In this document: in pieces, positions 948 to 50,856 of the stretch
Layout: each line of letters begins with the position of its first letter
Position numbering within the stretch: the first letter of the stretch is position 1
NCBI GenBank assembly: GCA_016188265.1
Contig: JACPID010000001.1
Location: 1,674-65,673 of the forward strand
Direction of reading: 5' to 3'
DNA from: Candidatus Woesearchaeota archaeon
GTDB lineage: Archaea > Nanobdellota > Nanobdellia > Woesearchaeales > ARS49
Length of the DNA stretch: 64,000 nt
Position numbers and translations under genes: made by a program
The notes under the pieces: model-generated
The model's input: only the letters and a program-made list of their open reading frames with translations
What the model was told of the DNA's origin: nothing
The model's database searches: none

Positions 948-1502
948 TTGACCGACTATATAGTTGCCATAAATTATATAAAGCTTATATATTATTTCCA
1001 GCAAATGACATTACATTCTGCTCTTGAGAAAGTTCTTTCTTCAGAAATGTTTCGTTCATGGATATCTTTGCACTCTAAAGCTTTTCTTGCTCATGCTTTT
1101 TTAATGAGTGAAAATGCGTGGCAGTTTGGATGGTATAATCCTGATAATAACAAAATAACAACCTTTATTGTTGAAAAGGATATTAGTAAAATTGAAAATC
1201 AGGAAATTTTTTCCACAGGAGAGCCTGTTAAACCATTGCCAGTTGATAAAGTTAAAGTTACTGAAACAATTGCAATACAAAAAGCTAAAGAAGTTTTAGA
1301 AAAAAATTATAATAATGAACAAGTTTTGAAAATTTTTCTTCTGTTACAACTTTTAGGTGAACTGCCAATTTACACAATTACTTTTTTCACAAAATCACTT
1401 AATGCAATTACTGTCAAAATCTCAGCCATCGACGGAAAAACAGCGTCACACACTAAGAGTAGTTTCACAGACTTCTCAAGAGTAACAACACAACAACTGT
1501 AG
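948..1502 (+). CDS. hypothetical protein
   Basis: 184-aa ORF with no recognisable motifs. It lies in the otherwise non-coding span between taw1 and tmk. Confidence 0.2.
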   Translation: MTDYIVAINYIKLIYYFQQMTLHSALEKVLSSEMFRSWISLHSKAFLAHAFLMSENAWQFGWYNPDNNKITTFIVEKDISKIENQEIFSTGEPVKPLPVDKVKVTETIAIQKAKEVLEKNYNNEQVLKIFLLLQLLGELPIYTITFFTKSLNAITVKISAIDGKTASHTKSSFTDFSRVTTQQL

Positions 1503-4759: not shown

Positions 4760-5071
4760 TCATGATTTAACACTCATTTCTAACAGTTTTGGGTTATGCG
4801 TCCATAATACCGAACCATCTTTATCAATAACTATTTTCCCAGAACTTTCCAAATAATTAAGAATTATTTTAAAAGTTTGATACATTATTTTTTTAGGTAA
4901 AGACTTCCATAACTGCATCTTATTAGGATACTCTCCTGATTTTTTAATTGCATTTTCTACCATTAAAATAGTATCCAAACGAGGATAATGTATAACTTCA
5001 ACTTTTTGTTTTTTCATTAATAATTGCATTTCAACCACCTTGCATAAACTTATATAATTATATAAACGCAT
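4760..5071 (-). CDS. small winged-helix-like protein, paralog of 15575..15859
   Basis: PRLDTILMVENAIKKSGEYPNKMQLWKSLPKKIMYQTFKIILNYLE matches PTLDTVLMVERIIEENSGEYNRTELWKNLPRKVMWQTFLVILDYLE at the second locus. Confidence 0.5.
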   Translation of the reverse strand: MRLYNYISLCKVVEMQLLMKKQKVEVIHYPRLDTILMVENAIKKSGEYPNKMQLWKSLPKKIMYQTFKIILNYLESSGKIVIDKDGSVLWTHNPKLLEMSVKS

Positions 5072-5193: not shown

Positions 5194-5934
5194 TTATTCT
5201 TTTGCTGTTTGCCATAATATGTTGAAGTAGGATTTGAATGACGCGCTTATTTCTTTGCTTTGTATTAGTATTGCAAATGGTCTGTCTCCTGCTAACCATA
5301 AGAGTAGAACCGTTTTATTTCCATAAATATATATAGTCATAGGGCTTTCATGTGTTTTAGGAAGATATTTTACTTCTGTTAAAGAATAAGTCTTAAATTC
5401 TTCACCTAGTTTGACTCCTTCTCCTGTTTGGTTAATGAGTGTTTTAAGTTTTATTTTGTTTTTTATTCTTTCTTTATGAAATCTCTGAATAAAAAATAAT
5501 GGTAAGATCTGTCTACTTTTTCCTGTGGTTCCTATGGCAAACCAATCTTTTCTGGTTCTTAGAATATCATTAAGAATTGTTTTCATTCCTTCTTTATCTT
5601 CATAAACTTCAACAAATGGCTTTGAGAATGCTATTTGATGAAACGCTTTAAGATTAGGTAAAATGCTTAATATAGAATGTTCTTTTTCTTTTAAGTAATC
5701 TAAAATCTTTTCAGGAGGTGCTGCATGAAAAAATTTAATATTATTTTTGACAACATAAGAAACCAATCCGCGGCTTATGAGACTTCTTAATGTATCGTAT
5801 AGGTGTGTTCTGGATTCATTTGTTTTCTTTGCTATATCCGCTACAGTTGCTTCTTGGAGCTGTAATAGTGCTAAATATGCGTCGGCCTCTCTGTTTGATA
5901 GTCCAATTCTTATTAATTGATCTTTCTCGCTCAT
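5194..5934 (-). CDS. TrmB-family HTH transcriptional regulator (paralog 1)
   Basis: N-terminal TrmB wHTH: LSNREADAYLALLQLQEATVADIAKKTNESRTHLYDTLRSLISRGLV. Confidence 0.7.
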   Translation of the reverse strand: MSEKDQLIRIGLSNREADAYLALLQLQEATVADIAKKTNESRTHLYDTLRSLISRGLVSYVVKNNIKFFHAAPPEKILDYLKEKEHSILSILPNLKAFHQIAFSKPFVEVYEDKEGMKTILNDILRTRKDWFAIGTTGKSRQILPLFFIQRFHKERIKNKIKLKTLINQTGEGVKLGEEFKTYSLTEVKYLPKTHESPMTIYIYGNKTVLLLWLAGDRPFAILIQSKEISASFKSYFNILWQTAKE

Positions 5935-11543: not shown

Positions 11544-11855
11544 TCATTTATACTCCCTCCAAGTATGCTTGCACTTTTCACACTTGTAAAAACGAGTTGG
11601 AGCTTCATCACTTGCCCTTGTTTGAACAATCCAATGATATGCTTTAGTGTGATGGCATTTTGGGCATTCAGCATCTATTAAAGGAAGTAATTCTTTTTCT
11701 TCAACAACTTCAATTTGTGCTGATTCTTTTGTTTGTTCTTTGATTTTTATTTCTTCAACATCTTTTTTTTTATAGCCACAACTGCATGAAAGCAGGTTTT
11801 TTCCTTTTTTATCTGGTTTTGGTACCAGTATTGAACCGCATTTTGGACAAAACAT
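11544..11855 (-). CDS. tfs: transcription factor S / RNA polymerase subunit M (TFIIS-type Zn ribbon)
   Basis: N-terminal CPKCGS...CSCG and C-terminal CPKCHHTKAYHWIVQTRASDEAPTRFYKCEKCKHTWRE. Confidence 0.8.
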   Translation of the reverse strand: MFCPKCGSILVPKPDKKGKNLLSCSCGYKKKDVEEIKIKEQTKESAQIEVVEEKELLPLIDAECPKCHHTKAYHWIVQTRASDEAPTRFYKCEKCKHTWREYK

Positions 11856-11859
11856 TTTA

Positions 11860-12498
11860 TCACCACTGATTTTTTAGTATTTCTAAGAGGGAAACAAATC
11901 CTAATTTAAGCCAGCCTAAGTAAGGAATTTTGAAGACTGCTTTTCCGAAAACATTTTCTTTAGGAATGTTTTCCTCAAAATCATGTATACCACAGTTTGC
12001 GTCACCTTTTGTTTTAAAAACTTTTCCATTTTCTTTTATTTTTATAACTCTGTGGATAACTGGATCAAATTTTTGATTGCCTTTAAATACTATAATATCG
12101 CCAACTTTTATGTTTGTTGGACGAGAAACAATCATTATATCACCTTTATTAAAGCCATTTTTAAAAGGGTATTTTTTAAAATCTTCAAGTGTTAATTGAA
12201 TTGGGAAGTATAATTCTGATTGAATTTTTTTAATAATGCAGGTATTTTCACAACATGTAAAACCATTCCACCAGTCATCAAGTGAGCTTTTATGTTCCAT
12301 ACTTCCAGAAATAACTGCAACTATGGGGTATGGCGAACCAAATATTAAGCCAAGAACTGGATAAAAAACGTATTTTATTAAAACAAAAGAAACAATTAAA
12401 CAAGTAAACCAACTTAAAGCACCTTCGCCATACCAAGTAAAATGCCAAAATTGCTTAAAGTATTCCCATGCTTTTTTTAACATAAATAACAAAAACAT
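11860..12498 (-). CDS. signal peptidase I (archaeal Sec11/S26B type)
   Basis: N-terminal TM followed by VISGSMEH (SGSMEP-like) and GDIIVFKG...HRVIKI. Confidence 0.65.
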   Translation of the reverse strand: MFLLFMLKKAWEYFKQFWHFTWYGEGALSWFTCLIVSFVLIKYVFYPVLGLIFGSPYPIVAVISGSMEHKSSLDDWWNGFTCCENTCIIKKIQSELYFPIQLTLEDFKKYPFKNGFNKGDIMIVSRPTNIKVGDIIVFKGNQKFDPVIHRVIKIKENGKVFKTKGDANCGIHDFEENIPKENVFGKAVFKIPYLGWLKLGFVSLLEILKNQW

Positions 12499-12696
12499 AA
12501 TTAAAGTTTAAAATAGTTTCCATCACTCTGGAATTATTTTAATCCATTCTTTTTCTGGAATCAATTTGACTTTTGTTGATGGCTTCAATTTATATTTGCT
12601 TGTTAATTCTTTAGGTAATCTAAAGCATCTAGCCTTATTTGAGCATCTATGGCGAGATCCACATTTATTTGTATAATTAGTTAATTATAAAAAGTA

Positions 12697-13158
12697 ATGC
12701 TTCTTTTTAGTATTATGAAACTGTTAAAACAAAGACATCCAAATTATTTTGAAGGAATCATTCAGTTAAGAAATCCTAGTGAAGAAATTGTAGATTATAC
12801 TAGAAAAACCGCGGTAAAAGATGCAAGGGCAGTAATTAGTAAAATTAAAAGAGTTAAAAACGGTTTAGACATGTATGTAAGTTCTCAAAAGTATGTTCAA
12901 ACAATTGGAAAAAAAATTAAAGAAAAATTTCCAGGCATATTAAAGGTTTCAGCTACTCTTCACACACAAAAAAAAGGAAAAGACTTATACAGAGTTACTG
13001 TTTTATTTAGATATGTTCCTATAAAAACTGATAAAATAATAAAGTTTAAAGGTGAAGATTACATTATTTTAAGTTGGGAGAAAAAAGTACGTTTGAAGCA
13101 TGCTAAGTCAGGTAAAAAAATAGAAGTTAGTTTTGATCAAATCAGTTTAACACAATAA
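12697..13158 (+). CDS. hypothetical protein, possibly NMD3-family-like
   Basis: NYFEGIIQLRNPSEE resembles the YFEAxxQLR block of archaeal NMD3-like proteins. Recalled from memory. Confidence 0.3.
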   Translation: MLLFSIMKLLKQRHPNYFEGIIQLRNPSEEIVDYTRKTAVKDARAVISKIKRVKNGLDMYVSSQKYVQTIGKKIKEKFPGILKVSATLHTQKKGKDLYRVTVLFRYVPIKTDKIIKFKGEDYIILSWEKKVRLKHAKSGKKIEVSFDQISLTQ

Positions 13159-13825
13159 TATTTCCTCTTCCTTTTTTTATTTTTTTAATTTTACCTTCAG
13201 ATTCTAATTGCGTTATAACTAATGATATTTTTGCTTCTGAATAAGGAATATTTTTTCTTAAATCTTTTTGAGATGTTCTTCCGCCTTCTTTTTTAATAAA
13301 TGAAATAATAATTTGTTCAAGTTTATCTGCTGGTGGTTTTATTTCTGTCAAAACTTGTGGCTGATAATTATCAGATTTTTGTTTAACTTCTTGTTTTCGC
13401 TTTTTTTTAATGAAGAATATAATTGAAAGTATGAATAAAACAAGTATTGTAAGCCACCAATAAGATATTTTTTGTTTTTCCTCTTTTTCTAAAGAAACTC
13501 CTGTTTCCTGTAGCAGATAAGTTTCTTCACTAATATCTGGAAGAAGTATAAGATCAATAGTATAATTTTCTTTTTGTTTGACTATTATTTGTTCTTCAAT
13601 TTTCAAATCTGGTTTTTTTGTGGCTTGAAGAATATAAGTTCCTTCATTAACTGTGAAAGAATAAATTCCATCTTGAGAAACATATACTTGTCGTTCAGGA
13701 AAAATTTCAACAACAACTCCTTCTTGAGGCGTTAATTCAATATCATAAATTCTACCTTGAACAATGGCGCTATAAGCTGAAGTTATGCAAGTTAATAATA
13801 GAATTGCAAAAATTATCCACCTCAT
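13142..13825 (-). CDS. membrane-anchored protein: secreted beta-domain, one TM, cytoplasmic winged helix
   Basis: Signal peptide, carboxypeptidase-regulatory-like N-domain, TM WWLTILVLFILSIIFFI, C-terminal wHTH ISLVITQLESEGKIKKIKKGRGNII. Confidence 0.45.
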   Translation of the reverse strand: MRWIIFAILLLTCITSAYSAIVQGRIYDIELTPQEGVVVEIFPERQVYVSQDGIYSFTVNEGTYILQATKKPDLKIEEQIIVKQKENYTIDLILLPDISEETYLLQETGVSLEKEEKQKISYWWLTILVLFILSIIFFIKKKRKQEVKQKSDNYQPQVLTEIKPPADKLEQIIISFIKKEGGRTSQKDLRKNIPYSEAKISLVITQLESEGKIKKIKKGRGNIIVLN

Positions 13826-14040
13826 AATTGCTTTAAAATATAATTAGTATATAAAACTTAAGACAGTAATGAATAAAAAATGGCTGAAAAATCCTTATTT
13901 TCGATAAAAAAACAATTTTAAAGTTTTATAAAGCTTCAAAAGGAGTAATAATTAATTAAAAATTTTTCAAAAATAAGTATATTTATAAAGAAAATGGTTA
14001 ATTTTAGAACTAAAGATTTGGCTATCTGAACTAAAAGTTG

Positions 14041-14079
14041 TTGTGTGAAGTAAAATGCTTCACACAATATTTTTTTTTT
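14041..14079 (+). promoter_or_regulatory. perfect 10-bp inverted repeat followed by T10, immediately upstream of the start of 14084..15163
   Basis: TTGTGTGAAG-TAAAATG-CTTCACACAA then TTTTTTTTTT. Confidence 0.3.
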
Positions 14080-14083
14080 AAAG

Positions 14084-15163
14084 ATGAAAAAAATAATAAC
14101 TGCATCATTAATTACCTTAATTATTATATTGCTTCTTCCAGCTGTATTTGCCGAGAAAGAAGATAAAAGAATGCAAAGAGCTGATATTGCTAAAGATAAA
14201 GCAGCAGATATTATAATAAGACCATATGTAGAAAAAAAGCAAGAATCTCAGAAAGAAATAAGCGAGTTAAGAGAAAAGTTAAAAGAAGCAAAAGATGAAG
14301 AAGTAAGATCAGAATTAAAAGAAGCTATTAAAGAAAGACAAAAAATAACAGAAACACAAGTAAAAGAATTAAGAGAACGTGTAAAAGAAAGAAGTGTTGA
14401 AAAAGAAAAAATAAAACAGTTTTCAGAAGAAACGCGCAAACAATATAAAACAATAAAGGAAAAAGCAAATGAAACAAAAGAAAGATTAAAGGATGTGCGA
14501 GAAAAATCAAAAGAATGTAAAGATAAAGCATCAGAAGAATGTAAAAAATTAAGTGAGAAAGTTAAAGAGAACGCAAATGATTTCTTATTAAGAACATCTG
14601 AACAAATTATTGGTTTATTAAGTAAAGCAAAAGAAAATGTAGAACGTTCTCCGCTTGATCAGGAACAAAAACAAGAAGCATTAGCCAGACTTGATTCTAG
14701 AATTGAAGAAGTTGCAAAATTAAAAGAAACTTTAGCAACAGATGAAAATGTAACAAAAAAAGAAGTAAAAGAAGCTTCAAGATTAATGAGAGAAGAATGG
14801 CAAAAAGCAAAACAAGATGTACGTAGTGCAGTAGGTTTAGTAGCAGCTTCAAAAATAGGCGGAGTGCTGAAAAGAAGTGAAAAATTAGAAGAAAAATTAA
14901 ATAAAATTGTTGAAAGAGCAAAAGAAACTGGAGAAAATACACAAACAATAGAATCATTATTAAAAGAATTTAAAGTATATGTTGAGAAAGCAAAAGCATT
15001 GCATAAAGAAGCGCAGGAATTATTTATAAAAGAAAAAACAAGTGAAACAATGCAAGAAGCAACAGAAAAATTAAAATTAGCACAGGAAGAACTTAAAAAT
15101 GCCCAAGAAGTGCTTAAAAAAATAACATTAGAACTTAGAAAAAAACAAGGAGATAAAAAATGA
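14084..15163 (+). CDS. secreted Lys/Glu-rich coiled-coil protein
   Basis: Signal peptide MKKIITASLITLIIILLLPAVFA followed by low-complexity KE-rich heptad-like sequence. Confidence 0.5.
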   Translation: MKKIITASLITLIIILLLPAVFAEKEDKRMQRADIAKDKAADIIIRPYVEKKQESQKEISELREKLKEAKDEEVRSELKEAIKERQKITETQVKELRERVKERSVEKEKIKQFSEETRKQYKTIKEKANETKERLKDVREKSKECKDKASEECKKLSEKVKENANDFLLRTSEQIIGLLSKAKENVERSPLDQEQKQEALARLDSRIEEVAKLKETLATDENVTKKEVKEASRLMREEWQKAKQDVRSAVGLVAASKIGGVLKRSEKLEEKLNKIVERAKETGENTQTIESLLKEFKVYVEKAKALHKEAQELFIKEKTSETMQEATEKLKLAQEELKNAQEVLKKITLELRKKQGDKK

Positions 15164-15384
15164 AAAATTTAGGATTGCTAATGATATTATTATTGCTTAT
15201 ATCTGCTTGCCAAAAACCTTTAGCTAAAGAATCTAAAGCTCCTGAGTTTAATAATGAAGTAAGTGAAGGAGCGCAAACAGTAGAAAAAGAATTAAATGAA
15301 GTATCTCAAGTAAATGAAGAACTTGAAATAAATGAATTAGATGATTTAGATCAAGAATTAAAATCTTTAGAAGAGTTGGAATAA
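15160..15384 (+). CDS. small acidic putative lipoprotein
   Basis: MKNLGLLMILLLLISAC lipobox-like start. ATGA overlap with the upstream gene. Confidence 0.4.
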   Translation: MKNLGLLMILLLLISACQKPLAKESKAPEFNNEVSEGAQTVEKELNEVSQVNEELEINELDDLDQELKSLEELE

Positions 15385-15574
15385 CAAAACATCACAACAT
15401 TTCCAACATTATTGGTTTTCTCTTTTTTCTTATTGCATTAAACCCTCGATTATTTGTTTCCCTTCACAAAACAAATATAGAGTGTAAAACTTTGAGAGTT
15501 TTATCGATTTGCTGCAAGTTCTAAAAATACTATTCTGTGAATGCAAAGATTTATATATCAATTGATATATTGTA

Positions 15575-15859
15575 TTGTGTATGAAAGCTGAACTTTTAGA
15601 GAATCCTTTTGTAAGATCTCCTACTTTAGATACTGTTTTGATGGTGGAAAGAATTATAGAAGAAAATAGTGGAGAATATAACAGAACTGAACTATGGAAA
15701 AACTTACCAAGAAAAGTAATGTGGCAGACTTTTCTCGTCATTTTGGATTATTTAGAAAACATTAACAAAATTGCTTTTGATAAAGAAGGAAAAATTGCCT
15801 ACATATGGAATCCTGATCTTGCAAAAAAGCTTAGACAAAGAAAGGAGATTAAAGTATGA
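15575..15859 (+). CDS. putative antitoxin, small winged-helix protein (paralog of 4760..5071)
   Basis: Paralogy with 4760..5071. 4-nt ATGA overlap with the downstream RelE-like gene. GGAG Shine-Dalgarno-like motif before the toxin start. Confidence 0.5.
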   Translation: MCMKAELLENPFVRSPTLDTVLMVERIIEENSGEYNRTELWKNLPRKVMWQTFLVILDYLENINKIAFDKEGKIAYIWNPDLAKKLRQRKEIKV

Positions 15860-16182
15860 TTAAGGCATCAAAAGTCGTATTTATCTCGCAAGAGTTAGAA
15901 GACGACTTCAACTCACTTAAACCAGATGATCCCATCAAGAAAGCAATGATTAGAGCCATTCAAGACTTAAAACAAAATGCGTTCTCAGGAATACAAGTAC
16001 CAAAAAGACTGTTTCCTAAGGAATATGTTCAAAAGTATGGAATAACCAACTTATGGAAATACGACCTACCTAGAGGCTGGAGACTTTTGTATACAATAAC
16101 TGCAGACAACGAAGTAGACTTAATCTCAGCAATTCTAGAATGGTTCAACCATAAAGATTACGAAAGAAAATTTAGATATTAG
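15856..16182 (+). CDS. RelE/ParE-superfamily toxin
   Basis: VVFISQELEDDFNSLKPDDPIKKAMIRAIQDLKQNAF...NLWKYDLPRGWRLLYTITADNEVDLISAILEWFNHKDYERKF fits the RelE/YoeB pattern. Confidence 0.6.
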   Translation: MIKASKVVFISQELEDDFNSLKPDDPIKKAMIRAIQDLKQNAFSGIQVPKRLFPKEYVQKYGITNLWKYDLPRGWRLLYTITADNEVDLISAILEWFNHKDYERKFRY

Positions 16183-16204
16183 TATAATTCACCCAATAAT
16201 TGAC

Positions 16205-16987
16205 TTAATTGTTGAGTGTGAACTGTTGAAGGATATTTGAGCATTTGGTTTGTTCTCTTGTTTTTCGAGTTGTATTTTTGTGTTTCCATATTTTATTGAA
16301 ATATTCTTGGTACATTTGGCTTATTTGTTTTGATCTTATTAAGTAGCCTATTGGTTTTTCTGACCAAGCTATTAATGCTACTTTGCTTTGGCATATACTT
16401 ATATCTGAAGGTATTGGAAAGTCTGCATATTTCATGTGTAGTATTTTTCTTCCAATAAATAATTCTTTGATATCTTTTTGGGCGATTCCTCTGACGTATA
16501 AACCTTTTTCAGCCCTTTTAATGTCAAATTTTCTGAAAAAGTCTTGTATTTCTTTATTTTTATCTTTTAAGTATGTTGCAAAAAAATAGTATTCATCGCC
16601 TTTTTTTGCATCTTCAATAAGTAAAGTAAGCATCACCATAATTCCTTTAATTCCTTCAAAAATCTCAGCTTCTTGTCTTTCAACACCTTTTCGTTTTATT
16701 TCAAGTTCTGGAAGAATGTTGGACAATCTTTTTTTCTTTTCTTCAATAAAATCGAGTAATTGCTTTGGAGGAACTGCTTGGTATTGCTTGATTTTTCCTT
16801 TTTTAATGTATGAAACCAGTCCTTTTTCGATTAATGTGTTTATTGAATTATGAACTGCTGAACTTGCCATTCCTGATTTCTCTATTATTGCGCCAACTTT
16901 TGTAGTTCCGAGTTCAAGAAGAGTTAGGTATGTTTTGATCTCTCCTTTACTAAGCCCTAAATCTTCAAGTATTAAAGTATCCATCAA
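16205..16987 (-). CDS. TrmB-family HTH transcriptional regulator (paralog 2)
   Basis: LSKGEIKTYLTLLELGTTKVGAIIEKSGMASSAVHNSINTLIEKGLVSY. A/C-ending codon usage. Confidence 0.7.
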   Translation of the reverse strand: MMDTLILEDLGLSKGEIKTYLTLLELGTTKVGAIIEKSGMASSAVHNSINTLIEKGLVSYIKKGKIKQYQAVPPKQLLDFIEEKKKRLSNILPELEIKRKGVERQEAEIFEGIKGIMVMLTLLIEDAKKGDEYYFFATYLKDKNKEIQDFFRKFDIKRAEKGLYVRGIAQKDIKELFIGRKILHMKYADFPIPSDISICQSKVALIAWSEKPIGYLIRSKQISQMYQEYFNKIWKHKNTTRKTREQTKCSNILQQFTLNN

Positions 16988-17085
16988 AACTTCATAGTTT
17001 AATCTTATTTATAAAATTTTCTATTTAACTCTCTATTTTTAGAGAGTTAATATTTATATACTCTAACATTAACTATTATAAAGTA

Positions 17086-17742
17086 ATGAATTGGAGGTGT
17101 TTCAAAATGAACCTTAAACAAAAAATACAAAACATATTACTTGCAACAACACTCACTTTTACAGGTTGTGCTGAAACAAAACCTTTTGGAAAAGTAGCAA
17201 GCTACTACGACACCAAAGGACAACCAACAGCAACAATAGCTGGAGGAGCTACAGACTTACCACTAGGAACTAAACTATTTGGATTTGCAGATGTTGAAAC
17301 AGAAAAAGAAAATCCAGATAACTTACAAAATCCTTACATAGAACTTCAACTTTCAAAAAAAGCAAGCAATGGTCTAGGAATAGCTACAGAATACAACAGA
17401 AATTTCTCACTTGAAAAAGGAATTACAAGAGCTGGATTTGTTTATGAACCAAATCTTGCAGAAATACTAAAAAATACAAGAATAGGATTAAAATTCTACC
17501 CAACAGCCACAGACAATCATGGAATGCAAGCAGGATTCTATGGAAGCAAAAGCTTCAACAAAGGAGACATAACTCTTGATACATTTCTTGACTACAATAT
17601 AGATGCAAAAAGAATTGTCAGTGACTTACAAGTTGGAAAAAAACTTGGAGAAAACTTCTACTTTGTATTAGAAGGAAGACACAACGGATTCAAGAAAAAA
17701 GACAAAGAAGGCTTAGGAATTGGATTTGAATGGAGATGGTGA
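17086..17742 (+). CDS. putative lipoprotein with beta-rich, OMP-like composition
   Basis: Lipobox LTFTGCAE, alternating beta-strand-like segments, aromatic C-terminus GFEWRW. The start is more likely the second Met, at 17107. A/C-ending codon usage unlike neighbouring genes. Confidence 0.5.
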   Translation: MNWRCFKMNLKQKIQNILLATTLTFTGCAETKPFGKVASYYDTKGQPTATIAGGATDLPLGTKLFGFADVETEKENPDNLQNPYIELQLSKKASNGLGIATEYNRNFSLEKGITRAGFVYEPNLAEILKNTRIGLKFYPTATDNHGMQAGFYGSKSFNKGDITLDTFLDYNIDAKRIVSDLQVGKKLGENFYFVLEGRHNGFKKKDKEGLGIGFEWRW

Positions 17743-17802
17743 TTTAAAATTATTAGTGATATTTTTGGGGAGAAACTGGCATTTTAAGCTGGTTTTCTCT
17801 TC

Positions 17803-18153
17803 TTATTTTCTAACATAAAGATCAACTCTGCAAGGCCCAAAACCAATCCTATCACAAGTTTGTCCTCTATCTTTTAGCATTTGATAACCTTCTTGAGAAA
17901 TTATTATCAAATACTTTGTTATTGCTTCAAAACAAGCACCTTTAGGCAGACTTTCCATTTCAACAAAAAGATTATTTTGTAATCTTCCAAGAAATAACTC
18001 AATTTCTCTCATCGGATTCAATTCTGCAGGTAATTCTCTAACTTTAGCTGTTCCTTTAAGAGTTTCATGCTCAAGCATAGACAATTCATCAACACACAAA
18101 TCAATACCAATCTCTAAACCAAGACTTATACTCGCTTTCATTTTAACAAGCAA
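17803..18153 (-). CDS. hypothetical protein
   Basis: 116-aa ORF with host-like codon usage. No motif recognised. Confidence 0.35.
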   Translation of the reverse strand: MLVKMKASISLGLEIGIDLCVDELSMLEHETLKGTAKVRELPAELNPMREIELFLGRLQNNLFVEMESLPKGACFEAITKYLIIISQEGYQMLKDRGQTCDRIGFGPCRVDLYVRK

Positions 18154-18244
18154 ATAACATTGTTAAATTTAAAATTATTGATTAAAAAAGAAAAATAAAG
18201 AGAAGACACCAACCAATTTAGTGATTGATACTCTCTTAATGTCA

Positions 18245-18805
18245 CTAAAAATAAACAGTAGTCTTTTTTAGACTGTTTAGATATTCTCTTGGGTTTTTAA
18301 AGCCTAATACTTCTAGTACTTCTATTGCTGCTTTGTTTACTTGAGAAGAACCAAAAAAGTCTCTTATATCATAATGTTTTGTTATATCCTTTAGCCCTTT
18401 AATAAATGCTTTTTTTAGTTTTTCTTGAGTTTGAGTTGAGCGTGGATGATATCTTATAGGTTTAGGTGTGTAATTGTAATCTCCCCAATAACTTCCTCCC
18501 CTAAATGTCCTCTGTTCAGGCTGGTAACTTCTAGTTCTATTAATTTGTTGAATTAAATCTTTTAAACAAGGAGCTTTTTCTCTTGACACATTTGAGGCAC
18601 TAATAATAATACCATAGTGAACTCTGCTTAGAAAAGGATTTTTAAAACTTTTATATTCATTAATTCTATGAGTTTTTACAAGTAATTCTAAAACTTTTAA
18701 TGGATCTTCTCTACAATACCAAATTTCTTTAGGTACTGAATAAATATATCCATCACTGTCTTCAAGAATTCCTTCTAAACTTATTTTGGTTGGCATTTTT
18801 TCCAT
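18245..18805 (-). CDS. hypothetical protein (downstream member of an overlapping pair)
   Basis: Overlaps the upstream ORF by 25 nt in a different frame. Confidence 0.4.
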   Translation of the reverse strand: MEKMPTKISLEGILEDSDGYIYSVPKEIWYCREDPLKVLELLVKTHRINEYKSFKNPFLSRVHYGIIISASNVSREKAPCLKDLIQQINRTRSYQPEQRTFRGGSYWGDYNYTPKPIRYHPRSTQTQEKLKKAFIKGLKDITKHYDIRDFFGSSQVNKAAIEVLEVLGFKNPREYLNSLKKTTVYF

Positions 18806-19428
18806 ACTCCCAAAAGTTTTTTAGGATGTGCAATCTCTAGTCTTGGTGATTCATTTGGTGAAGGAATTTCTAAATCCACAAAATGGCCACTCCAGCCACC
18901 GAAATCACTACTGTAATAAGATGTTACAGCTTTTATGCATTCATCATAACCAAAAAGAAGAGGCATAAATTGAGGTCTTGATTCATATCTGGTTAAGTTT
19001 AAAAATATTTCATCACTATACCAAAAATGATATCTATCTTTATTACCTCTATCTTTTTTTAGTAATGCTTCTAATTCTGAAGGATTAAGCATCTCTCTGC
19101 CTTTTTTAGTTTCTTGAAATGCTTTTGCATAATTAACCCCAAAATTATGAACTATTGCTAAAACTCTTGAATTTTCTGGTGGAGCTTTGTAAGATTCATC
19201 ATTAATGTATGTTGGACTTCCTTTAACAACCACATTTCGACCATTAATTTTTAGAACAATATCTGCCAAATCTTTATTTTGCTCTACTTTTCTTGAGCTT
19301 TCGTCAATTGCTTTGTGAGCTGAAGAAATCACACCTTCATACATTGAGTCTAACATTTGTGATAGAGTTTGCCCTCTTTGACTTGGTGAGTGATCACACA
19401 TTATTTTTCCACAAATTGAACAAGTCAT
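18781..19428 (-). CDS. hypothetical protein with N-terminal Cys cluster (upstream member of an overlapping pair)
   Basis: Begins MTCSICGKIMCDH. No further motif recognised. Confidence 0.4.
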   Translation of the reverse strand: MTCSICGKIMCDHSPSQRGQTLSQMLDSMYEGVISSAHKAIDESSRKVEQNKDLADIVLKINGRNVVVKGSPTYINDESYKAPPENSRVLAIVHNFGVNYAKAFQETKKGREMLNPSELEALLKKDRGNKDRYHFWYSDEIFLNLTRYESRPQFMPLLFGYDECIKAVTSYYSSDFGGWSGHFVDLEIPSPNESPRLEIAHPKKLLGVWKKCQPK

Positions 19429-19556
19429 TTTGAAACACCTCCAAAGTGTTAAATTTCACTACAATACTATCGTAACAACAGAATATTTAATACTTTGTTG
19501 TCCTAAAAGGTCGACAAATAGAAAGTTTTATAAACTTTGAAACACAAATACAACTC

Positions 19557-20291
19557 ATGATTGACAAATATAGTGAAGTTTTGAAAGAGTTTGGACTTTC
19601 AGAAAATGAAGTTAAAGTATACATAACTCTGTTAAAAACTGGAGAATCCGGTGTTCAAAATCTGGCTAAAAATGCAGGACTTCCAAGAACAACAACATAC
19701 CACCTCCTAGAAAGCTTATCACAAAAAGGTCTTGTAAGCCACATCGATAAAAATAAAATAAGATACTTCCAAGCAGCAAATCCTAAAATAATTCCAGAAA
19801 TTCTTGAAGAACAGAAAAAACACATCAAAGAAATAATTCCAGAACTCTTAACAATCGCAGAAACCTTTACAGAAAAGCCCAAAGTTGAAGTTTACGAAGG
19901 AATCAAAGGAATAAAAACAATTCTGGAAGACACACTAGAAACAAAAAAAGAAATACTTCATTATGGAGACATAATATCTTTACAAAACTCATTAAAATAC
20001 ATATTTCCTCAATTTATCAACAAAAGAGTAGAAAAGAAAATACCAATCAAAATACTCTGCAAAAAAGAAGCAGCACACAAAGAATTACTAGAAACAGCTA
20101 AAAAACAATACCGAGAATTCAAATTTATACCATCAAACTACACATTCAAATCAAGCATATTCATCTACAACAAAAAAGTAGCAATACTAAGCCTTCAACA
20201 AGAACCATACTACGGAATCATAATAGACAACGAGGATTTTCACCAAACACAAAAAAACATGTTCGAACTATTATGGCAAACAAAACACTAA
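19557..20291 (+). CDS. TrmB-family HTH transcriptional regulator (paralog 3)
   Basis: LSENEVKVYITLLKTGESGVQNLAKNAGLPRTTTYHLLESLSQKGLVSH. Strongly A/C-rich coding strand. Confidence 0.7.
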   Translation: MIDKYSEVLKEFGLSENEVKVYITLLKTGESGVQNLAKNAGLPRTTTYHLLESLSQKGLVSHIDKNKIRYFQAANPKIIPEILEEQKKHIKEIIPELLTIAETFTEKPKVEVYEGIKGIKTILEDTLETKKEILHYGDIISLQNSLKYIFPQFINKRVEKKIPIKILCKKEAAHKELLETAKKQYREFKFIPSNYTFKSSIFIYNKKVAILSLQQEPYYGIIIDNEDFHQTQKNMFELLWQTKH

Positions 20292-20358
20292 ATCCCCCCA
20301 ATTATTTTACCATTAAAAGTTTACTCAAAAAATACTGGTCTACAACAACACAGGATTA

Positions 20359-20486
20359 TGTCAAGAACCACTGGTCAATAGACCAGTGGCATGAAACTTA
20401 GGTTTCAGCATCCAGTGGTTCTTGAGCACACCAAGATTCCACTACTAAACCACTAGTGAAACACTAGTGGAATCTTAGTGTTTGAA
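20359..20486. repeat. structured intergenic repeat element, copy A (inverted-repeat termini plus a second composite hairpin)
   Basis: Inverted repeat TGTCAAGAAC...GTTCTTGAGCA closes an ~70-nt hairpin, followed by a second composite hairpin. Same termini and two-hairpin architecture as copies B and C. Confidence 0.6.
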
Positions 20487-20559
20487 ACATTATCTTCACC
20501 ACAAACCACCAACCATAAACCACAAACTAATTAAATATTACTTCTGGTTCTGCAAGTAA

Positions 20560-27254: not shown

Positions 27255-27512
27255 GTGATAAATATGGCTTTACTTGAAATTAAAACAACCAAAATAACAG
27301 ATAAAGGACAGATATCCATCCCAAAGGATATTCGTGAAAAAAAAGGCTTTAAAGAAGGACAAAAGTTAGCAGTTATTGCTTTTGAGAACCGAATAGAATT
27401 AATTCCTCTAAAAGAATTTAATGAGAAAATGTTCACTGCATTTGCTAGCGAAAAATCTTTAGCAAAAGACTGGCTTAGTGAAGAGGACGAAAAAGCATGG
27501 AAGACCTTGTGA
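27255..27512 (+). CDS. mazE: MazE/AbrB-type antitoxin
   Basis: ITDKGQISIPKDIREKKGFKEGQKLAV swapped-hairpin motif. Overlaps the toxin gene. Confidence 0.6.
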   Translation: MINMALLEIKTTKITDKGQISIPKDIREKKGFKEGQKLAVIAFENRIELIPLKEFNEKMFTAFASEKSLAKDWLSEEDEKAWKTL

Positions 27513-27829
27513 AAGGAAATGTAGTTATTTTATTATTTCCCTTTTCAGATCTTAGCTCAGCAAAGAAAAGACCTGCAGTAATAGTCGCAAAACTTACTGG
27601 AAATGACTCAATACTTGCCCAAATAACAAGCGTAGAAAGGAAAGACGAATATGCAATAAATCTAACGAGTAAAGACTTCAAACAAGGAAGCTTACCTCAA
27701 GAAAGCATAATAAAACCAAATAAATTATTTACTGCAGATAAATCATTAATTTTTCACAAAGCAGGAACACTCAAAGAAAACAAAATAAAAGAAGTTGAAA
27801 ATGCATTGATGACAATTTTCAAACAATAA
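27497..27829 (+). CDS. mazF: MazF/PemK-family toxin
   Basis: GNVVILLFPFSDLSSAKKRPAVIVAK matches the MazF N-terminal pattern. A/C-ending codon usage. Confidence 0.6.
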   Translation: MEDLVKGNVVILLFPFSDLSSAKKRPAVIVAKLTGNDSILAQITSVERKDEYAINLTSKDFKQGSLPQESIIKPNKLFTADKSLIFHKAGTLKENKIKEVENALMTIFKQ

Positions 27830-27897: not shown

Positions 27898-28356
27898 TTA
27901 TTGTGTTAGAAGTGTGCTTAATTCTTCTGGTTTGTACTTCCATTCTAAAGGTAATTTCTTTTTTCTTTTAAAGTAATTGGTAAGTCTTTGTATTTTTGAT
28001 TCAGTGAGTTGAAGCCCACGTTTTGCATGCATGTCATGCTTGTTTTTTTCCATGTGTTTTTTGATAAGCATCACTCTCTTCATTAGCAAAGTAATATCTT
28101 CAGGTATTTCTGGCGCTAAATTTTTTTCTTTTAATAATTGAGTTATTGTTTTGCCTGTAAGAAGTTTTACATCAGGAATTCCATAATTATCTCTTAAAGC
28201 AAGGCCTATTTGGCTTGTTGTTTTTCCTTCTTTTGCAAGTTTTGAAATTAATAGCTCTATTTCTTTTTGTTTGTACCTTACCCATGTTGTAGGTTTTGGT
28301 GTTAAGGGTTTATGGCTGCCACTTTTGCCACGAGCTCTGCTGTGCCTTTTTGCCAT
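27898..28356 (-). CDS. rps15: 30S ribosomal protein S15 (uS15, S13e type)
   Basis: MAKRHSRARGKSGSHKP N-terminus and typical length. Confidence 0.8.
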   Translation of the reverse strand: MAKRHSRARGKSGSHKPLTPKPTTWVRYKQKEIELLISKLAKEGKTTSQIGLALRDNYGIPDVKLLTGKTITQLLKEKNLAPEIPEDITLLMKRVMLIKKHMEKNKHDMHAKRGLQLTESKIQRLTNYFKRKKKLPLEWKYKPEELSTLLTQ

Positions 28357-28685: not shown

Positions 28686-29762
28686 TTATAAAACAAACTG
28701 TAATGCATGCCAATCTTCTTTGCCTTGTTTTATTTTAATTTCTTTTTTTAACTTAAATCCTAAGGCTAACTCTATAATTTGTTTTTTATTTTCATGAATA
28801 TATAAAACTATAATTCCTTTTGGAGACAATAATTTTTTAGACTGCTCAAAAAATTGTGAGTATAATTTTATCATTGTTTTGTCATTATTTTTTAGCCAAT
28901 TAGGAGGTTGAGTTATAATACAGTCTATGCTTTGGTCATTAAATTTTAAATCCAACCAGTAAAGGTCTTTTCTACTAAAATTTATAATTTTATTAACTCC
29001 AGCAAGATTTGCATTTTTTTTAGATGATGCTATGTTTTTAAATTGAGGATCAATTGCATAAATAAAAGGATTTGTTTCTTCTTCATTTCTGTCAATATTT
29101 TCTAAAACATTTTTCCAATTGTCATATAACTTTATTTTTGTAAATGCAAAATTATTTTTATTAAAAAAATGCGGTGATTTGTTTTTTGCAATCAGGGCTG
29201 CTTCTATTGGAATTATTCCTGTCCTGCAAAAAGGATCAATGATTTTTTTATTAGCGGAATATTCTGCAATTAAAAGCAGTGAAGCTGCAATATTGCCTCT
29301 TAAGCTATCTGGGCCTAAAAATAATCTATATGCTCTTTTGCCAAGATCAAATCCTGAGATATCTATGCCAAAATAAAATATATTATTTTCAACTATGAAA
29401 TAATAATGAATAATTCCTTGTTTAGGATTATAGCTGCCTTGTATTTTTTTAGCTAAAAGATTTGAAAGCTCAAAGCTTGTAAAAAAGTGCGTTCCTTCTC
29501 TTTGCCCGTTAATTTTAAAGGATTGTTCTGTTTTGAATGATTCAAATTTTTCTAATGGTGTTTTGTCAAAAGAAAATGACTGAATTAATACTATAACCCT
29601 ATTAATTGTTCTTAGCATATAACACAATTCTAAAACTTTTTCGTCAATAACATCACACAAAAGCTTTCCTTCAGAAAGTTCACAATTTAGATTAAACAAA
29701 ACTTTAATCTCCTGAGCACTAATTGCTTCCAGGCCCGGATTGGTTAGAATTAAGATTTTCAT
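28686..29762 (-). CDS. THUMP-domain RNA methyltransferase (tRNA m2G methyltransferase-like)
   Basis: N-terminal THUMP-like region. MTase core with FCRTGIIPIEAALIA and a substrate-binding block ITQPPNW (DPPY/NPPY-like). Confidence 0.55.
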   Translation of the reverse strand: MKILILTNPGLEAISAQEIKVLFNLNCELSEGKLLCDVIDEKVLELCYMLRTINRVIVLIQSFSFDKTPLEKFESFKTEQSFKINGQREGTHFFTSFELSNLLAKKIQGSYNPKQGIIHYYFIVENNIFYFGIDISGFDLGKRAYRLFLGPDSLRGNIAASLLLIAEYSANKKIIDPFCRTGIIPIEAALIAKNKSPHFFNKNNFAFTKIKLYDNWKNVLENIDRNEEETNPFIYAIDPQFKNIASSKKNANLAGVNKIINFSRKDLYWLDLKFNDQSIDCIITQPPNWLKNNDKTMIKLYSQFFEQSKKLLSPKGIIVLYIHENKKQIIELALGFKLKKEIKIKQGKEDWHALQFVL

Positions 29763-32700: not shown

Positions 32701-33513
32701 CAAAAAGGCTAAATTTTTATTCATTATTTTTGGCAGACTAACATTGTTTTTGAACCCATCTTTTGGATAAAAATTTTCTAAATTCAAAGAATCTTCAGAA
32801 AACATGGCGTTTCTATTAATTGTTGCTATATCTCCTTCTTCTAAATTCTCTAAAAGCTTCCAAGAAATTTCCGGCTTAAAATTAAGTCCAACTCTCCAGG
32901 TCAGTATTGGATGATTGTAAGAACCTTCTAATTCGTAACCTGTTTTAGTTTTTATTTTTATTGTTTTGTGCTTGCCTGAATTGAAGAATTTAGAGGCTCT
33001 GTTTATATTTCCATCGTGCGACAATATTTTTAAATTAATTTTTTCTTCTTTTCTTTTTGAAATATCTTTTATTTCTATTAGTCCTTTGTCTGTTTGCAAA
33101 AGAGAATCTCCTGTGATGCAGTAACGATACGCAGCTGCAGAATCCCCGTCGACAGAACCAAAATTTCCTTGTCCTTCAACTAATAGATATCTTAAATTCC
33201 AGGGCTGCGCCATTCTAACAAGAGCGTCATAGACTGCTGTATCTCCATGAGGGTGGAATTTCTTCAAAACATCTCCTATAATACCTGCACATTTTGAGTA
33301 TCTTTTGTTTGAAAGCAGCCCTTCTTGAAACATTGAGTAAAGAATTCTTCTATGAACTGGTTTTAAGCCATCTTTGACATCAGGTAAAGCGCGACCTACG
33401 ATTACTGACATAGAATAAGCTAAATATGCTTTTTTTACCTCATTTTCAATGAGTTTTGGTATGATCTTTCCATCTACAGGCGTTGTAGGCTGCTGGCTTG
33501 TTTCAGTGTCCAT
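29719..33513 (-). CDS. gyrA: DNA gyrase subunit A containing an in-frame intein
   Basis: GyrA N-terminus and catalytic AAAYRY, then C-ITGDSLL...VANGFINHN before [12 protein letters not shown]. GyrA C-terminal beta-pinwheel repeats follow. Confidence 0.85.
31822..33120 (-). mobile_element. GyrA intein (433 aa) with LAGLIDADG homing endonuclease domain, inserted right after the catalytic Tyr
   Basis: Splice junctions Y/CITGD and [18 protein letters not shown] blocks [14 protein letters not shown] and [15 protein letters not shown]. Same insertion point as the known Mxe GyrA intein. Confidence 0.8.
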
Positions 33514-36090: not shown

Positions 36091-36711
36091 ATGGGAGATT
36101 TGGAAGAAAGAGTTGAAGAATTATCTTATTTATTAGGTTTTAAAAAAAATCAGGAAAATGCAAAAAGAGTTTGTTTAAAAGATAGATTCAAGTATAAATC
36201 TGAAGTAGGAGGTATTTTATTAAAGCATGATTCAGATTTGTATTTTCATATTGTAAGATCTTATTATGACCGGCTTATTGATTTTTCCCACAAATTTGTC
36301 AAAACAGGCAATAGATGGTATGCAAATAGATTGATTGCTTTGATAAAACAAGATATTAAGATACGTGATTCAGAAGATTATGGCATAATTCAAGATAAAG
36401 AAGCTATTGAATTATTAAGAAATGTAGATGCAAGATACAGGTTTCCTGAAAAAAAATTAATCAAAATGTGTGAAGATATTGCCAGTCGAATTTATCTTCA
36501 AGAAGGCCCAATCAGCATTCCGGAAGATAAAGGCGAAAAATACATGGAATTTCACGTACATACAGGACAACCTCCTTCAAATGCAGATTTAACAAATAAT
36601 AACGAATTAGTCCTATCATACAAACTATTCAACAACTCCAAAGAATTTCATTTTATTACAGCATACTTCATCAACAATGGAGAGTACAAAAAGGCGATAA
36701 CATTCAGATAA
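36091..36711 (+). CDS. hypothetical protein
   Basis: 206-aa ORF. The 3' third has A/C-ending codon usage. Confidence 0.4.
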   Translation: MGDLEERVEELSYLLGFKKNQENAKRVCLKDRFKYKSEVGGILLKHDSDLYFHIVRSYYDRLIDFSHKFVKTGNRWYANRLIALIKQDIKIRDSEDYGIIQDKEAIELLRNVDARYRFPEKKLIKMCEDIASRIYLQEGPISIPEDKGEKYMEFHVHTGQPPSNADLTNNNELVLSYKLFNNSKEFHFITAYFINNGEYKKAITFR

Positions 36712-36754: not shown

Positions 36755-36997
36755 ATGACTTTGAAGACTATTAAAAACGTTGATGAAGAAACTTGGTATA
36801 GATTTAAAACTTTGGCAGTAAAGAATAAGCTTGTTATGGGAAAATTATTAGAAAAAATGATAATATCATATGAATCAGAATCAAATAAATTTTGGAAAGA
36901 AGTTCTAGAAGGTGATAAAATACTAAGCGATAAAGAAGCTAAAGATTTGTCAGAGGACCTAGAAAAGTTAAGAAAAGAACATGGGTTTAGATTATGA
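36755..36997 (+). CDS. vapB: VapB-type antitoxin (RHH/CopG-like)
   Basis: Small protein 4-nt-overlapped with the PIN gene; N-terminal beta-strand and helix pattern. Confidence 0.5.
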   Translation: MTLKTIKNVDEETWYRFKTLAVKNKLVMGKLLEKMIISYESESNKFWKEVLEGDKILSDKEAKDLSEDLEKLRKEHGFRL

Positions 36998-37386: not shown

Positions 37387-37470
37387 TGCAGGAGGCAGGA
37401 TTCGAACCTGCGAAGGCACTAAGCCAACAGCTCTTGAGGCTGCCACGTTTGACCACTTCGCTACTCCTGC
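37387..37470 (-). tRNA. tRNA-Leu (anticodon CAA), no encoded CCA
   Basis: Reverse complement folds as GCAGGAG acceptor, D arm, anticodon stem GCAGC / loop CTCAAGA / stem GCTGT, long variable arm, T arm GCAGG-TTCGAAT-CCTGC, discriminator A. Confidence 0.85.
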
Positions 37471-41832: not shown

Positions 41833-41886
41833 ACAATAAGGAGGATGATTTATAGAGGCGTTTAAACTTGGTAAATACTTCCAGTT

Positions 41887-44276: not shown

Positions 44277-44795
44277 TTAATTATTTCTCACATACCTGAA
44301 TAATTCTATTGTTTTTATTACTATATCTTGTAATTGTTTTTCTCTTTCTATTTTTAGTTTTTTAAGTGCTTTTTTGTCCAATGTTTTTTGAGTTTGAATA
44401 TGGTGTTGATTAAATACTGGTGTTACTGGCACTGTGAATTTTTGCAGTTCTGGAATAACTTTTTCAATACATAAAGGGTGTAGTTCTGCATAGCTTAAGT
44501 TTCCAAAACGTTTTTTCCATTCTTTTACAGGTATGGTTGTGATTTGTGAGAGTGTTATTATTTCTTTGCCTGGTTGTATAATATCTGTATTCCAGTTATA
44601 CCCGTATCCTGCGTATGGATCAAGGTAAAGTAATAAGTAAATAGGTTTTATATCTTGTTTAGGTTGGTGTGCATCAGAAACATATATTACAAAATTAGTT
44701 AATTGTTGCAAGTTTGGCAGTTCTAGGTCTTTAATTAATTCTAAATATGTTTCTATACTGGAGTCAAATATGTCAACAAATCTTTTTATTACCAT
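44277..44795 (-). CDS. hypothetical protein
   Basis: 172-aa ORF, no motif recognised. Confidence 0.35.
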   Translation of the reverse strand: MVIKRFVDIFDSSIETYLELIKDLELPNLQQLTNFVIYVSDAHQPKQDIKPIYLLLYLDPYAGYGYNWNTDIIQPGKEIITLSQITTIPVKEWKKRFGNLSYAELHPLCIEKVIPELQKFTVPVTPVFNQHHIQTQKTLDKKALKKLKIEREKQLQDIVIKTIELFRYVRNN

Positions 44796-50514: not shown

Positions 50515-50856
50515 TCAATATTCTTCAGTAGTTGTTGCTAATGGTGCAGCTGTTTTTTCTTCTGTTTCTTCATCTGCGCTTGGAACTGCTGCTTTGCTGA
50601 TTATGAATATGTCTCCTACTGCTTTTACGAACTGGTGAGGCACAATTACTCCTTTTGCAGTGCCTAAAACTCTGCTTAAAAAAGAGTTTTTAGTTGATTT
50701 AACTCTCCAGCCATAAACTTTGTTCATAGAAAGAATTGTTTCTTCAATATCTCCAAAATAGTCTCCTTGATCTGTAAATACTTTCATATCATATGTTTCT
50801 GAGATTTTTTTAACGCGAAGCATGGATGTACAAGAATATTTTATATATTTAAACAT
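50515..50856 (-). CDS. PRC-barrel domain protein
   Basis: Roughly 80-aa PRC-barrel-like core followed by an acidic tail. Confidence 0.4.
   Translation of the reverse strand: MFKYIKYSCTSMLRVKKISETYDMKVFTDQGDYFGDIEETILSMNKVYGWRVKSTKNSFLSRVLGTAKGVIVPHQFVKAVGDIFIISKAAVPSADEETEEKTAAPLATTTEEY

Follow-up and report, generated by a model that had tools for sequence, protein, structure and literature searches.

Among the genes of a 64,000-nucleotide stretch from the metagenome-assembled genome (MAG) of a Candidatus Woesearchaeota archaeon, which belongs to the DPANN archaea (contig JACPID010000001.1, positions 1,674 to 65,673; hereafter the window; about 30% GC), five use codons ending in A or C and lie among neighbors dominated by T-ending codons. 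These genes encode two TrmB-family proteins (TrmB-2 and TrmB-3), a putative lipoprotein, a 108-amino-acid (aa) protein with a RelE/ParE fold and a MazF/PemK-family protein. Their codon bias is real, restricted to synonymous positions, dependent on the type of codon box, persistent across diverged orthologs and currently regenerated. We give about an even chance to the explanation that these are resident genes in which the codon bias is maintained by selection as a translation-linked adaptation.

Pfam matches assign to the window a set of archaeal housekeeping genes (GyrA with an intein, XPD, Hef, Trm1, PCNA, RtcA, ThyA/DHFR, FabG/FabF, pyruvate dehydrogenase E1, the ribosomal protein gene rpS15 and aEF-1beta), as well as several toxin-antitoxin pairs and three TrmB-family paralogs. 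Codon usage was scored in 76 open reading frames (ORFs) using two measures that are independent of amino acid content: C/(C+T) in the two-fold pyrimidine boxes and Ile, and A/(A+T) in the four-fold boxes (A4). Genes were ranked by a leave-one-out log-likelihood codon score (LLR), and per-gene p-values were calculated against the backbone of the gene's own strand and multiplied by 152 tests. The backbone is itself asymmetric between the strands, with C/(C+T) 0.155 and A4 0.42 for genes on the + strand and 0.236 and 0.53 for those on the - strand. Positions 11827-20136 of the window are matched at 99.95-99.98% identity by three independent Logan assemblies. Therefore, the codon mosaic is not an assembly artefact, and a chimeric assembly was ruled out as its cause.

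A scattered class of A/C-ending genes had been proposed in a first-pass annotation of the window, and the five genes it named first are exactly those ranked first to fifth of the 76 ORFs by LLR (Table 1). Pooled, they reach C/(C+T) 0.53 against 0.19-0.20 in the backbone, and A4 0.68 against 0.48. On the pyrimidine measure, four of them are significant after correction and the MazF gene, which matches PF02452 at 1.5e-12 and has the third highest LLR per codon, is marginal. Below these five, a hypothetical gene (44277-44795) and rpS15 come next, followed by a continuous tail-off of the LLR distribution. The neighboring backbone genes do end their codons in T, as the annotation had stated, with C/(C+T) 0.19 in the KAS gene, 0.26 in gyrA and 0.04-0.18 in the genes of 17803-19428. 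The A/C-ending 3' part that it described in 36091-36711 was also found, and the last third of this ORF differs from its first two thirds (p = 8e-5 for C/(C+T) and 0.02 for A4). For 61327-62199, described as partly A/C-ending, only a weak shift was observed.

The bias resides in the third codon position. In the five outliers, this position consists of A.54, C.18, G.06 and T.22, compared with about.43,.08,.10 and.38 in the backbone, and codon positions 1 and 2 have the same composition as in the backbone, even in the fast-evolving lipoprotein gene. G-ending codons are thus depleted along with T-ending ones, and the overall GC content of the outliers is close to that of the backbone (0.322 vs 0.309). 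In addition, the shift differs between box types: in the outliers, C/(C+T) is 0.53 in two-fold boxes and 0.26 in four-fold boxes (Fisher p = 1e-6), T being replaced by C in the former and mainly by A in the latter. This difference is kept when the second base is fixed at T (0.41 vs 0.21, p = 0.012), and the corresponding contrast in the backbone is small (0.20 vs 0.15). A context-free mutational skew would be expected to produce equal ratios in both box types. For Phe, Tyr, Ile and Asn, the C-ending share rises from 16% in the backbone to 48% in the outliers, corresponding to a Sharp-type S of 1.6, which gauges the size and not the cause of the effect, as it was computed on five self-selected outliers. 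The avoidance of oligo-T runs resembling terminators was rejected as a cause, as the counts of such runs in the outliers equal the expectation from synonymous shuffling.

The bias also grows along the genes. In successive thirds of TrmB-3, from 5' to 3', C/(C+T) is 0.45, 0.61 and 0.88, and the share of T at position 3 (T3) falls from 0.30 to 0.06. Across the backbone genes of the window, A4 increases in the same direction from 0.42 to 0.53 (p = 2e-5) and C/(C+T) from 0.19 to 0.23, so that the 5' to 3' rise of the outliers is an amplified form of a trend seen in the backbone.

The history of the bias can be followed in TrmB-3. A PF01978 winged helix is present in all three TrmB paralogs, with 58.2 bits (5194-5934), 51.2 bits (TrmB-2; E = 1.2e-13) and 68.3 bits (TrmB-3), the cut-off being 25.6, and their matches to PDB profiles are restricted to about residues 4-132. 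None falls into the characterized TrmB, TrmBL1 or TrmBL2 subfamilies, for which the NCBIfam equivalogs reach 16-49 bits where 500-650 would be required. Homologs of TrmB-3 (n=111) are essentially all from Woesearchaeota or Nanoarchaeota, and alignment-based scans of genomes and metagenomes returned orthologs at 69% identity or less only. Sequences of relatives were used for comparison (loci L003, L004/L006, L015, L017, L018, L028 and L068-L074, among others). In L003, a homolog of the divergent neighbor of TrmB-3 (18245-18805) lies beside the TrmB-3 ortholog (88% aa identity), and the same neighborhood is found in L004/L006 (Nanoarchaeota archaeon SCGC AAA011-D5; TrmB-3 69%). Elsewhere, TrmB-like paralogs cluster near the TrmB-3 ortholog, with three within 5 kb in L010 (252-5249) and a further cluster in L008 (10001-13636). 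The paralogs of other Woesearchaeota being clustered in this way, the three copies in the window reflect an old, clustered family.

In the TrmB-3 clade with at least 71% aa identity (the window, L003, L015 and L017), both the bias and the 5' to 3' gradient are present in all four genomes, with C/(C+T) 0.50-0.67 and A4 0.70-0.79, and the neighboring genes are ordinary. The synonymous divergence (dS) between the two pairs of this clade is 1.0-1.2, and codon identity at conserved residues is 0.61-0.65 between pairs, where randomized synonymous sites would give 0.53-0.56. The bias has thus survived the loss of most synonymous information, dS being near 1 and codon identity near random. More than 20 orthologs at 55-69% identity follow the composition of their own genomes, which range from 27 to 62% GC. 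Changes on terminal branches were polarized by strict parsimony. At sites with ancestral T, 12 of 28 had changed, 10 of them to C, compared with 3 of 67 sites with ancestral C (p = 1.4e-5). T>C accounts for 10 of the 13 changes between T and C, against about 9% expected at the equilibrium of the host (p = 7e-9). Parsimony is known to inflate changes from common to rare states. Because this artefact works the other way, the T>C excess is conservative. Amelioration is absent as well: preferred-to-unpreferred (P>U) changes number 14 and U>P changes 11, although 78% of the sites are in state P.

The explanation by selection would run as follows. The outliers would be resident, vertically inherited genes, and selection on codons would keep their synonymous sites away from the T-rich equilibrium set by mutation in this genome. 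If the usual archaeal tRNA set is assumed, the favored codons would be those that pair in Watson-Crick fashion with G34 and U34 anticodons, namely NNC in the two-fold pyrimidine boxes and NNA in the four-fold and purine boxes, and the avoided NNU and NNG codons would need wobble. The intensity of selection would depend sharply on the gene and grow along each ORF. Translation is the probable selective agent, acting through the efficiency, accuracy or processivity with which abundant or critical proteins are made, and the outlier genes may thus be unusually highly or critically translated in the lineage of the window. By analogy with TrmBL2, TrmB-3 might be a DNA-binding protein of high abundance.

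Table 1. Positions and codon usage of the A/C-ending genes, of genes with A/C-ending 3' patches and of reference genes in the window; corrected p-values are given for C/(C+T) and A4, in that order.
Feature	Position	Strand	C/(C+T)	A4	Corrected p	Remarks
TrmB-3	19557..20291	+	44/66 (0.67)	47/67 (0.70)	1.6e-18, 5e-4	strongest outlier; 5' to 3' gradient
Putative lipoprotein	17086..17742	+	33/63 (0.52)	55/79 (0.70)	1.8e-9, 1e-4	
RelE/ParE/YoeB-fold 108-aa gene	15856..16182	+	18/34 (0.53)	18/24 (0.75)	7e-5, 0.17	
TrmB-2	16205..16987	-	29/67 (0.43)	41/67 (0.61)	0.044, not significant	
MazF/PemK-family gene	27497..27829	+	12/28 (0.43)	23/33 (0.70)	0.075, 0.2	marginal
Hypothetical gene	44277..44795	-	18/47	30/44		weaker A/C shift; LLR +0.046 per codon, sixth of 76
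rpS15	27898..28356	-	12/27 (0.44)	24/43		intermediate; sole ribosomal-protein gene found in the window; PF00312 and PF08069; T3 0.22; LLR about 0
Three interspersed backbone genes	17803-18153, 18245-18805, 18781-19428	-	0.04, 0.16, 0.18			T-ending
92-aa partner ORF	15581..15859	+	5/25	8/22		unbiased
3'-terminal A/C patch of ORF 36091-36711	36520..36711	+	15/28 (last third) vs 5/48	14/16 (last third) vs 12/25		
3'-terminal A/C patch of TrmB paralog 1 (5194-5934)	5194..5340	-	9/19 (last third)	18/26 (last third)		40-codon LLR peak 10.9, codons 197-245
3'-terminal A/C patch of ORF 948-1502	1338..1502	+				40-codon LLR peak 10.2, codons 129-183
3'-terminal A/C patch of PRC-barrel gene 50515-50856	50515..50676	-				maximum 40-codon LLR 7.3, codons 59-112

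The 108-aa protein stays below the Pfam gathering cut-offs, with 18.8 bits for PF05016 (ParE; cut-off 23) and 18 bits for PF06769 (YoeB; cut-off 27), and has no NCBIfam match. Its AF2 model (pLDDT 79.7, pTM 0.71) has as top Foldseek matches YoeB (7v5y_E, probability 1.00, TMt 0.70), PfiT, HigB-type and ParE toxins. According to this model, the protein has the RelE/ParE fold; its toxin activity is putative. More than 700 homologs are present in Woesearchaeota, nearly all of them 108 aa long and 77-93% identical. Directly upstream, overlapping by 4 nt, lies an ORF for a 92-aa protein without a Pfam or NCBIfam match, and thus without a recognized antitoxin domain. This partner is highly conserved in comparison with its ortholog in L069 (an AR20-like genome), and the pair is kept in L069 and L071. 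Together, the two genes form a near-universal module of the Woesearchaeota, with a conservation far above that of typical addiction modules. On the lineage leading to the window, the 108-aa gene has undergone seven T>C and no C>T changes, as judged against L068 (sister) and L069 (outgroup). In L069, L070 and L071, a cassette of 91+108+112 aa starts at an abrupt identity breakpoint (around position 9580), with 99.7% identity against 70-80%, and adjoins a tRNA gene or tRNA-like stretch.

The lipoprotein has a lipobox-like FTGC after its signal sequence. Its C-terminus, GFEWRW, recalls bacterial beta-barrel outer-membrane proteins. Only 2 homologs were found among 5.8 billion proteins, and the gene is always paired divergently with a TrmB-2 ortholog. 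This divergent pair is also kept in L018, a Woesearchaeon with 48% GC, at 68% (TrmB-2) and 54% (lipoprotein) aa identity.

The first-pass annotation had suggested that the A/C-ending genes were acquired repeatedly from a donor with another codon bias. In this scenario, they would have arrived piecemeal from an A/C-ending virus, plasmid or archaeon, or as small cassettes that circulate among Woesearchaeota, and we consider it improbable. The atypical composition and its gene-by-gene distribution are in line with such an origin, as are the gene classes, which are typical mobile cargo (regulators, genes of toxin-antitoxin systems and an orphan lipoprotein for which two homologs were found), and the cassette edge beside a tRNA gene in L069, L070 and L071. 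Circulation of cassettes would also agree with the TrmB-2/lipoprotein pair of L018, which deviates from its neighbors in the opposite direction. Furthermore, for TrmB-3 and the toxin-like gene, the fit to the codon usage of certain Woesearchaeota of higher GC is slightly better than the fit to their own backbone. For TrmB-3 and the 108-aa gene, however, the suggestion did not hold: TrmB-3 has kept its synteny, both genes have orthologs across the Woesearchaeota, and their bias is stationary or growing and not ameliorating. For the lipoprotein and MazF genes, a foreign origin may still apply. Conservation of the TrmB-2/lipoprotein pair in L018, the unbiased 92-aa partner within the same operon as the toxin-like gene, and the distant TrmB-3 orthologs that just follow their own genomes likewise speak against acquisition. 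A donor of higher GC was ruled out by the depletion of G at position 3 (G3 0.06) together with a GC content equal to that of the backbone.

No close relatives were found in IMG/VR, INPHARED or PLSDB, collections in which mobile elements of DPANN archaea are poorly sampled. IMG/VR returned no matches, and PLSDB returned none for the toxin-like gene. For TrmB-3, nothing above 30% identity was found in plasmids or phages, the sole phage match being partial. Between 13 and 22 kb, the genes with Pfam annotation included no integrase, and no repeat signature was seen. Donor-likeness, scored per codon as the likelihood under codon models from ten Woesearchaeota loci other than the window, gave equivocal results, with 3 of the 5 outliers fitting best to the - strand model of the window itself.

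The annotation had named a highly expressed gene class as the other explanation. The anatomy of the bias, confined to position 3 and dependent on the box, and its direction, which agrees with that of Nanoarchaeum equitans, fit this explanation. Comparison with genes that are expected to be highly expressed gave a mixed picture. Seven ribosomal-protein genes of L069 (36% GC) are shifted in the same direction (0.35/0.61 vs 0.24/0.51 for C/(C+T) and A4), and in L004 the shift of the elongation factor (EF) and ribosomal-protein genes is limited to C. In the window, rpS15 is intermediate and aEF-1beta unshifted, so that the match to ribosomal-protein genes by which the annotation would have recognized translational selection is neither clearly present nor clearly absent. 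No literature was found on the expression of the outlier proteins in Woesearchaeota or other DPANN archaea.

Multiple observations weigh against selection for translation. Genes that are canonically highly expressed show a much weaker bias than the outliers: aEF-1beta in the window is unshifted (C/(C+T) 3/22, 0.14; A4 11/33, 0.33), S6e is unshifted (0.11/0.48) in L003, where the TrmB-3 bias is shared, and in the AT-rich L028, EF and ribosomal-protein genes show hardly any shift (0.21 vs 0.15), with EF-1alpha, EF-2, S7 and S12 at C/(C+T) 0.19-0.32 vs 0.17. High expression would not be expected of toxins and regulators as a class, and the toxin-like gene is biased while its co-transcribed 92-aa partner is not (Fisher p = 7e-4). 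An Akashi-type accuracy test, which was underpowered, gave no enrichment at conserved residues (odds ratio 1.1-1.2, p = 0.75). The codon shift of the outliers correlates with the axis between the minus and plus strands of the window (rho 0.60), and with the axes of the relatives' ribosomal-protein genes or of N. equitans at a lower rho of 0.17-0.32. The 268 nt of non-coding sequence after TrmB-3 are A+C-rich as well. In addition, a DPANN archaeon with a reduced genome would not be expected to show strong translational selection (PMC1574309).

Some of these observations are what would be expected if the bias came from gene-specific, strand-asymmetric mutation and not from selection. An excess of C>T and A>G changes on the template strand would make the coding strand drift toward A and C, for example where antisense or convergent read-through transcription exposes the template as single-stranded DNA, most of all at the 3' ends of genes. 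We regard this explanation, the main rival to selection, as rather unlikely. It would account for a rise of A and C and a fall of G and T that run along the strand-asymmetry axis of the window, for the A+C-rich non-coding stretch, and for a bias that is strongest at 3' ends and confined to 3' patches in several genes. A convergent 3' neighbor is present in 8 of the 12 affected genes and in 22 of the 64 others (p = 0.053), and read-through from the convergent rpS15 and TrmB-2 genes would fit the stronger bias of MazF than MazE and of the toxin-like gene than its partner. Nevertheless, context-free mutation does not predict the difference in T/C ratio that separates two-fold from four-fold boxes when the second base is the same. 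Codon positions 1 and 2 remain unshifted even in the fast-evolving lipoprotein gene. TrmB-3, the strongest gene, has no convergent neighbor in the window or in L003, and its bias and gradient are kept in four genomes despite different downstream neighbors. Numerous convergent gene pairs of the window are without any such signal. In bacteria, the asymmetry known from sense transcription runs in the direction opposite to the A/C shift of the window.

Strand asymmetry could also stem from replication, in which case recent inversions would have placed genes that had long been on the lagging strand beside leading-strand genes. The backbone of the window is clearly asymmetric, and L068 even more so; for the outliers on the + strand, the codon model of the - strand gives a better fit than that of the + strand, and two genes on the - strand (17803-18153 and 4760-5071) look like + strand genes. 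The outliers far exceed every ordinary - strand gene, however, and show the same coding-strand skew on both strands, with TrmB-2 and rpS15 on the - strand and the rest on the + strand. TrmB-3 and RtcA, adjacent on the same strand, lie at opposite extremes (0.67 vs 0.04). The arrangement of TrmB-3 and its neighbor is unchanged in comparison with L003, yet T>C substitution went on in the lineage of the window. Replication asymmetry with inversion is thus largely refuted by orientation and magnitude, and we hold it to be hardly probable at all.

A very improbable variant of the explanation by selection is that the A/C-ending set forms a selection-maintained codon regulon that encodes a stress programme rather than an expression level. 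Its members would be the YoeB/RelE-fold protein, which resembles ribosome-dependent nucleases, MazF, the three TrmB-like regulators and the lipoprotein. Codons decoded by Watson-Crick pairing would let these messages still be translated, or protect them from cleavage at the A site or at specific sequences, during toxin activation or when tRNAs or tRNA modifications become limiting in a host-dependent cell; the bulk of T/G-ending messages would have no such benefit.

Between the stop codon of TrmB-3 and the start of the gene for RtcA (RNA 3'-phosphate cyclase) lies a 268-nt intergenic element (20292-20559) composed of A.37, C.24, G.13 and T.26. It contains nested hairpins, with a perfect 14-nt stem (20361-20374/20412-20425) and a 17-nt stem that is 94% complementary (20428-20444/20465-20481), and its RNA fold z-score is -3.7. 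The element matches no Rfam family and is not conserved in L003. It is a candidate non-coding RNA next to an RNA-repair gene.

The Schlafen/AlbA_2 and HATPase_c_4 gene at 41979-43382 (+), which is preceded by a gene-free stretch of 789 nt (41190-41978), has the highest GC at position 3 in the window (0.31), with C-ending and G-ending codons both raised. Its composition makes it a better foreign-gene candidate than the A/C-ending set. A different kind of outlier is found at 14084-15163 (+), which encodes a Lys/Glu-rich, coiled-coil-like protein of 359 aa with a signal peptide; its A content at position 3 is extreme (0.69) and C-ending codons are scarce (3/49), a pattern driven by A-rich codons. 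The genes at 4760-5071 (-) and 17803-18153 (-) are extreme in G/T-ending codons, with C/(C+T) 0.08 and 0.04 and C at position 3 of 0.02 and 0.01, respectively, and this + strand-like usage may point to local inversions. The GyrA gene (29719-33513, -) encodes a product of 1264 aa and carries an intein with a LAGLIDADG homing-endonuclease domain. The only tRNA gene of the window, tRNA-Leu(CAA) at 37385-37471 (-), abuts a toxin-antitoxin pair (36755-37386, +) that consists of a small ORF and a PIN-domain gene.

Compositional outliers are routinely taken as horizontally acquired. Here, the outliers are conserved resident genes in which the bias is regenerated. If translational selection is indeed the cause, a reduced-genome DPANN archaeon would have, in a few genes, a selection coefficient comparable to that of fast-growing bacteria, against the usual expectation of weak selection in organisms with reduced genomes, and TrmB-3 and the 108-aa RelE-fold protein would be unusually important or abundant in Woesearchaeota. 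The practical value lies mainly in a caution for the calling of genomic islands in MAGs and in a pointer to candidate high-abundance proteins of an uncultured lineage.

Codon usage shaped by selection is known, and the window would provide an unusually strong, gene-restricted and lineage-specific instance of it among the DPANN archaea. In N. equitans, an AT-rich DPANN archaeon, codons ending in A and C become more frequent in putatively highly expressed genes and those ending in G and U less so (PMC1574309), and the preference for C-ending codons was put down by the authors to weak translational selection (Das et al. 2006, PMC1574309). Both organisms are AT-rich DPANN archaea with reduced genomes, and 13 of the 16 optimal codons of N. 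equitans rise in the outliers of the window. In N. equitans, however, the effect is weak and its carriers are ribosomal-protein genes, whereas the strong effect in the window (S about 1.6) is found in TrmB-like regulators, a lipoprotein and two genes of toxin families, with rpS15 intermediate and aEF-1beta unshifted. The correlation between the two, codon by codon, is modest (rho about 0.3).

The S value described by Sharp et al. in 2005 reportedly measures the universal preference that highly expressed genes show for C- over U-ending codons of Phe, Tyr, Ile and Asn, with the translation genes of the whole genome as the reference. The same four amino acids shift to C-ending codons in the outliers, and T>C changes outnumber C>T changes. 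Compositionally atypical, or alien, genes are said by Lawrence and Ochman to ameliorate after horizontal transfer. The outliers resemble such genes in that their codon usage deviates from that of their neighbors gene by gene and in that they belong to classes often found on mobile elements. They differ in showing no decay to host usage, conserved synteny, lineage-wide orthologs, a host-like GC content and an unbiased operon partner.

Codon usage trends that run toward the 3' end within genes have been described previously (Zahdeh and Carmel 2019, PMC6892556). As in that trend, A-ending codons climb toward the gene end in the backbone of the window. In contrast, C-ending codons climb too, the gradient extends over the whole ORF and not just the region near the stop codon, and it becomes extreme in TrmB-3. 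Models of the cost of nonsense errors also address such 3'-ward trends. TrmBL2 of the Thermococcales is a TrmB-family protein that is abundant and chromatin-like (PMC11841832). TrmB-3 resembles it in its similar size (244 vs 264 aa), in an N-terminal winged helix, in having no detectable match to the TrmB sugar-binding domain and in being highly conserved. It differs in aligning to TrmBL2 only N-terminally, to about residue 130 (E about 8e-6), and in scoring 23 bits with the NCBIfam TrmBL2 equivalog against a cut-off of 530. The resemblance of TrmB-3 to TrmBL2 is one of analogy and not of membership.

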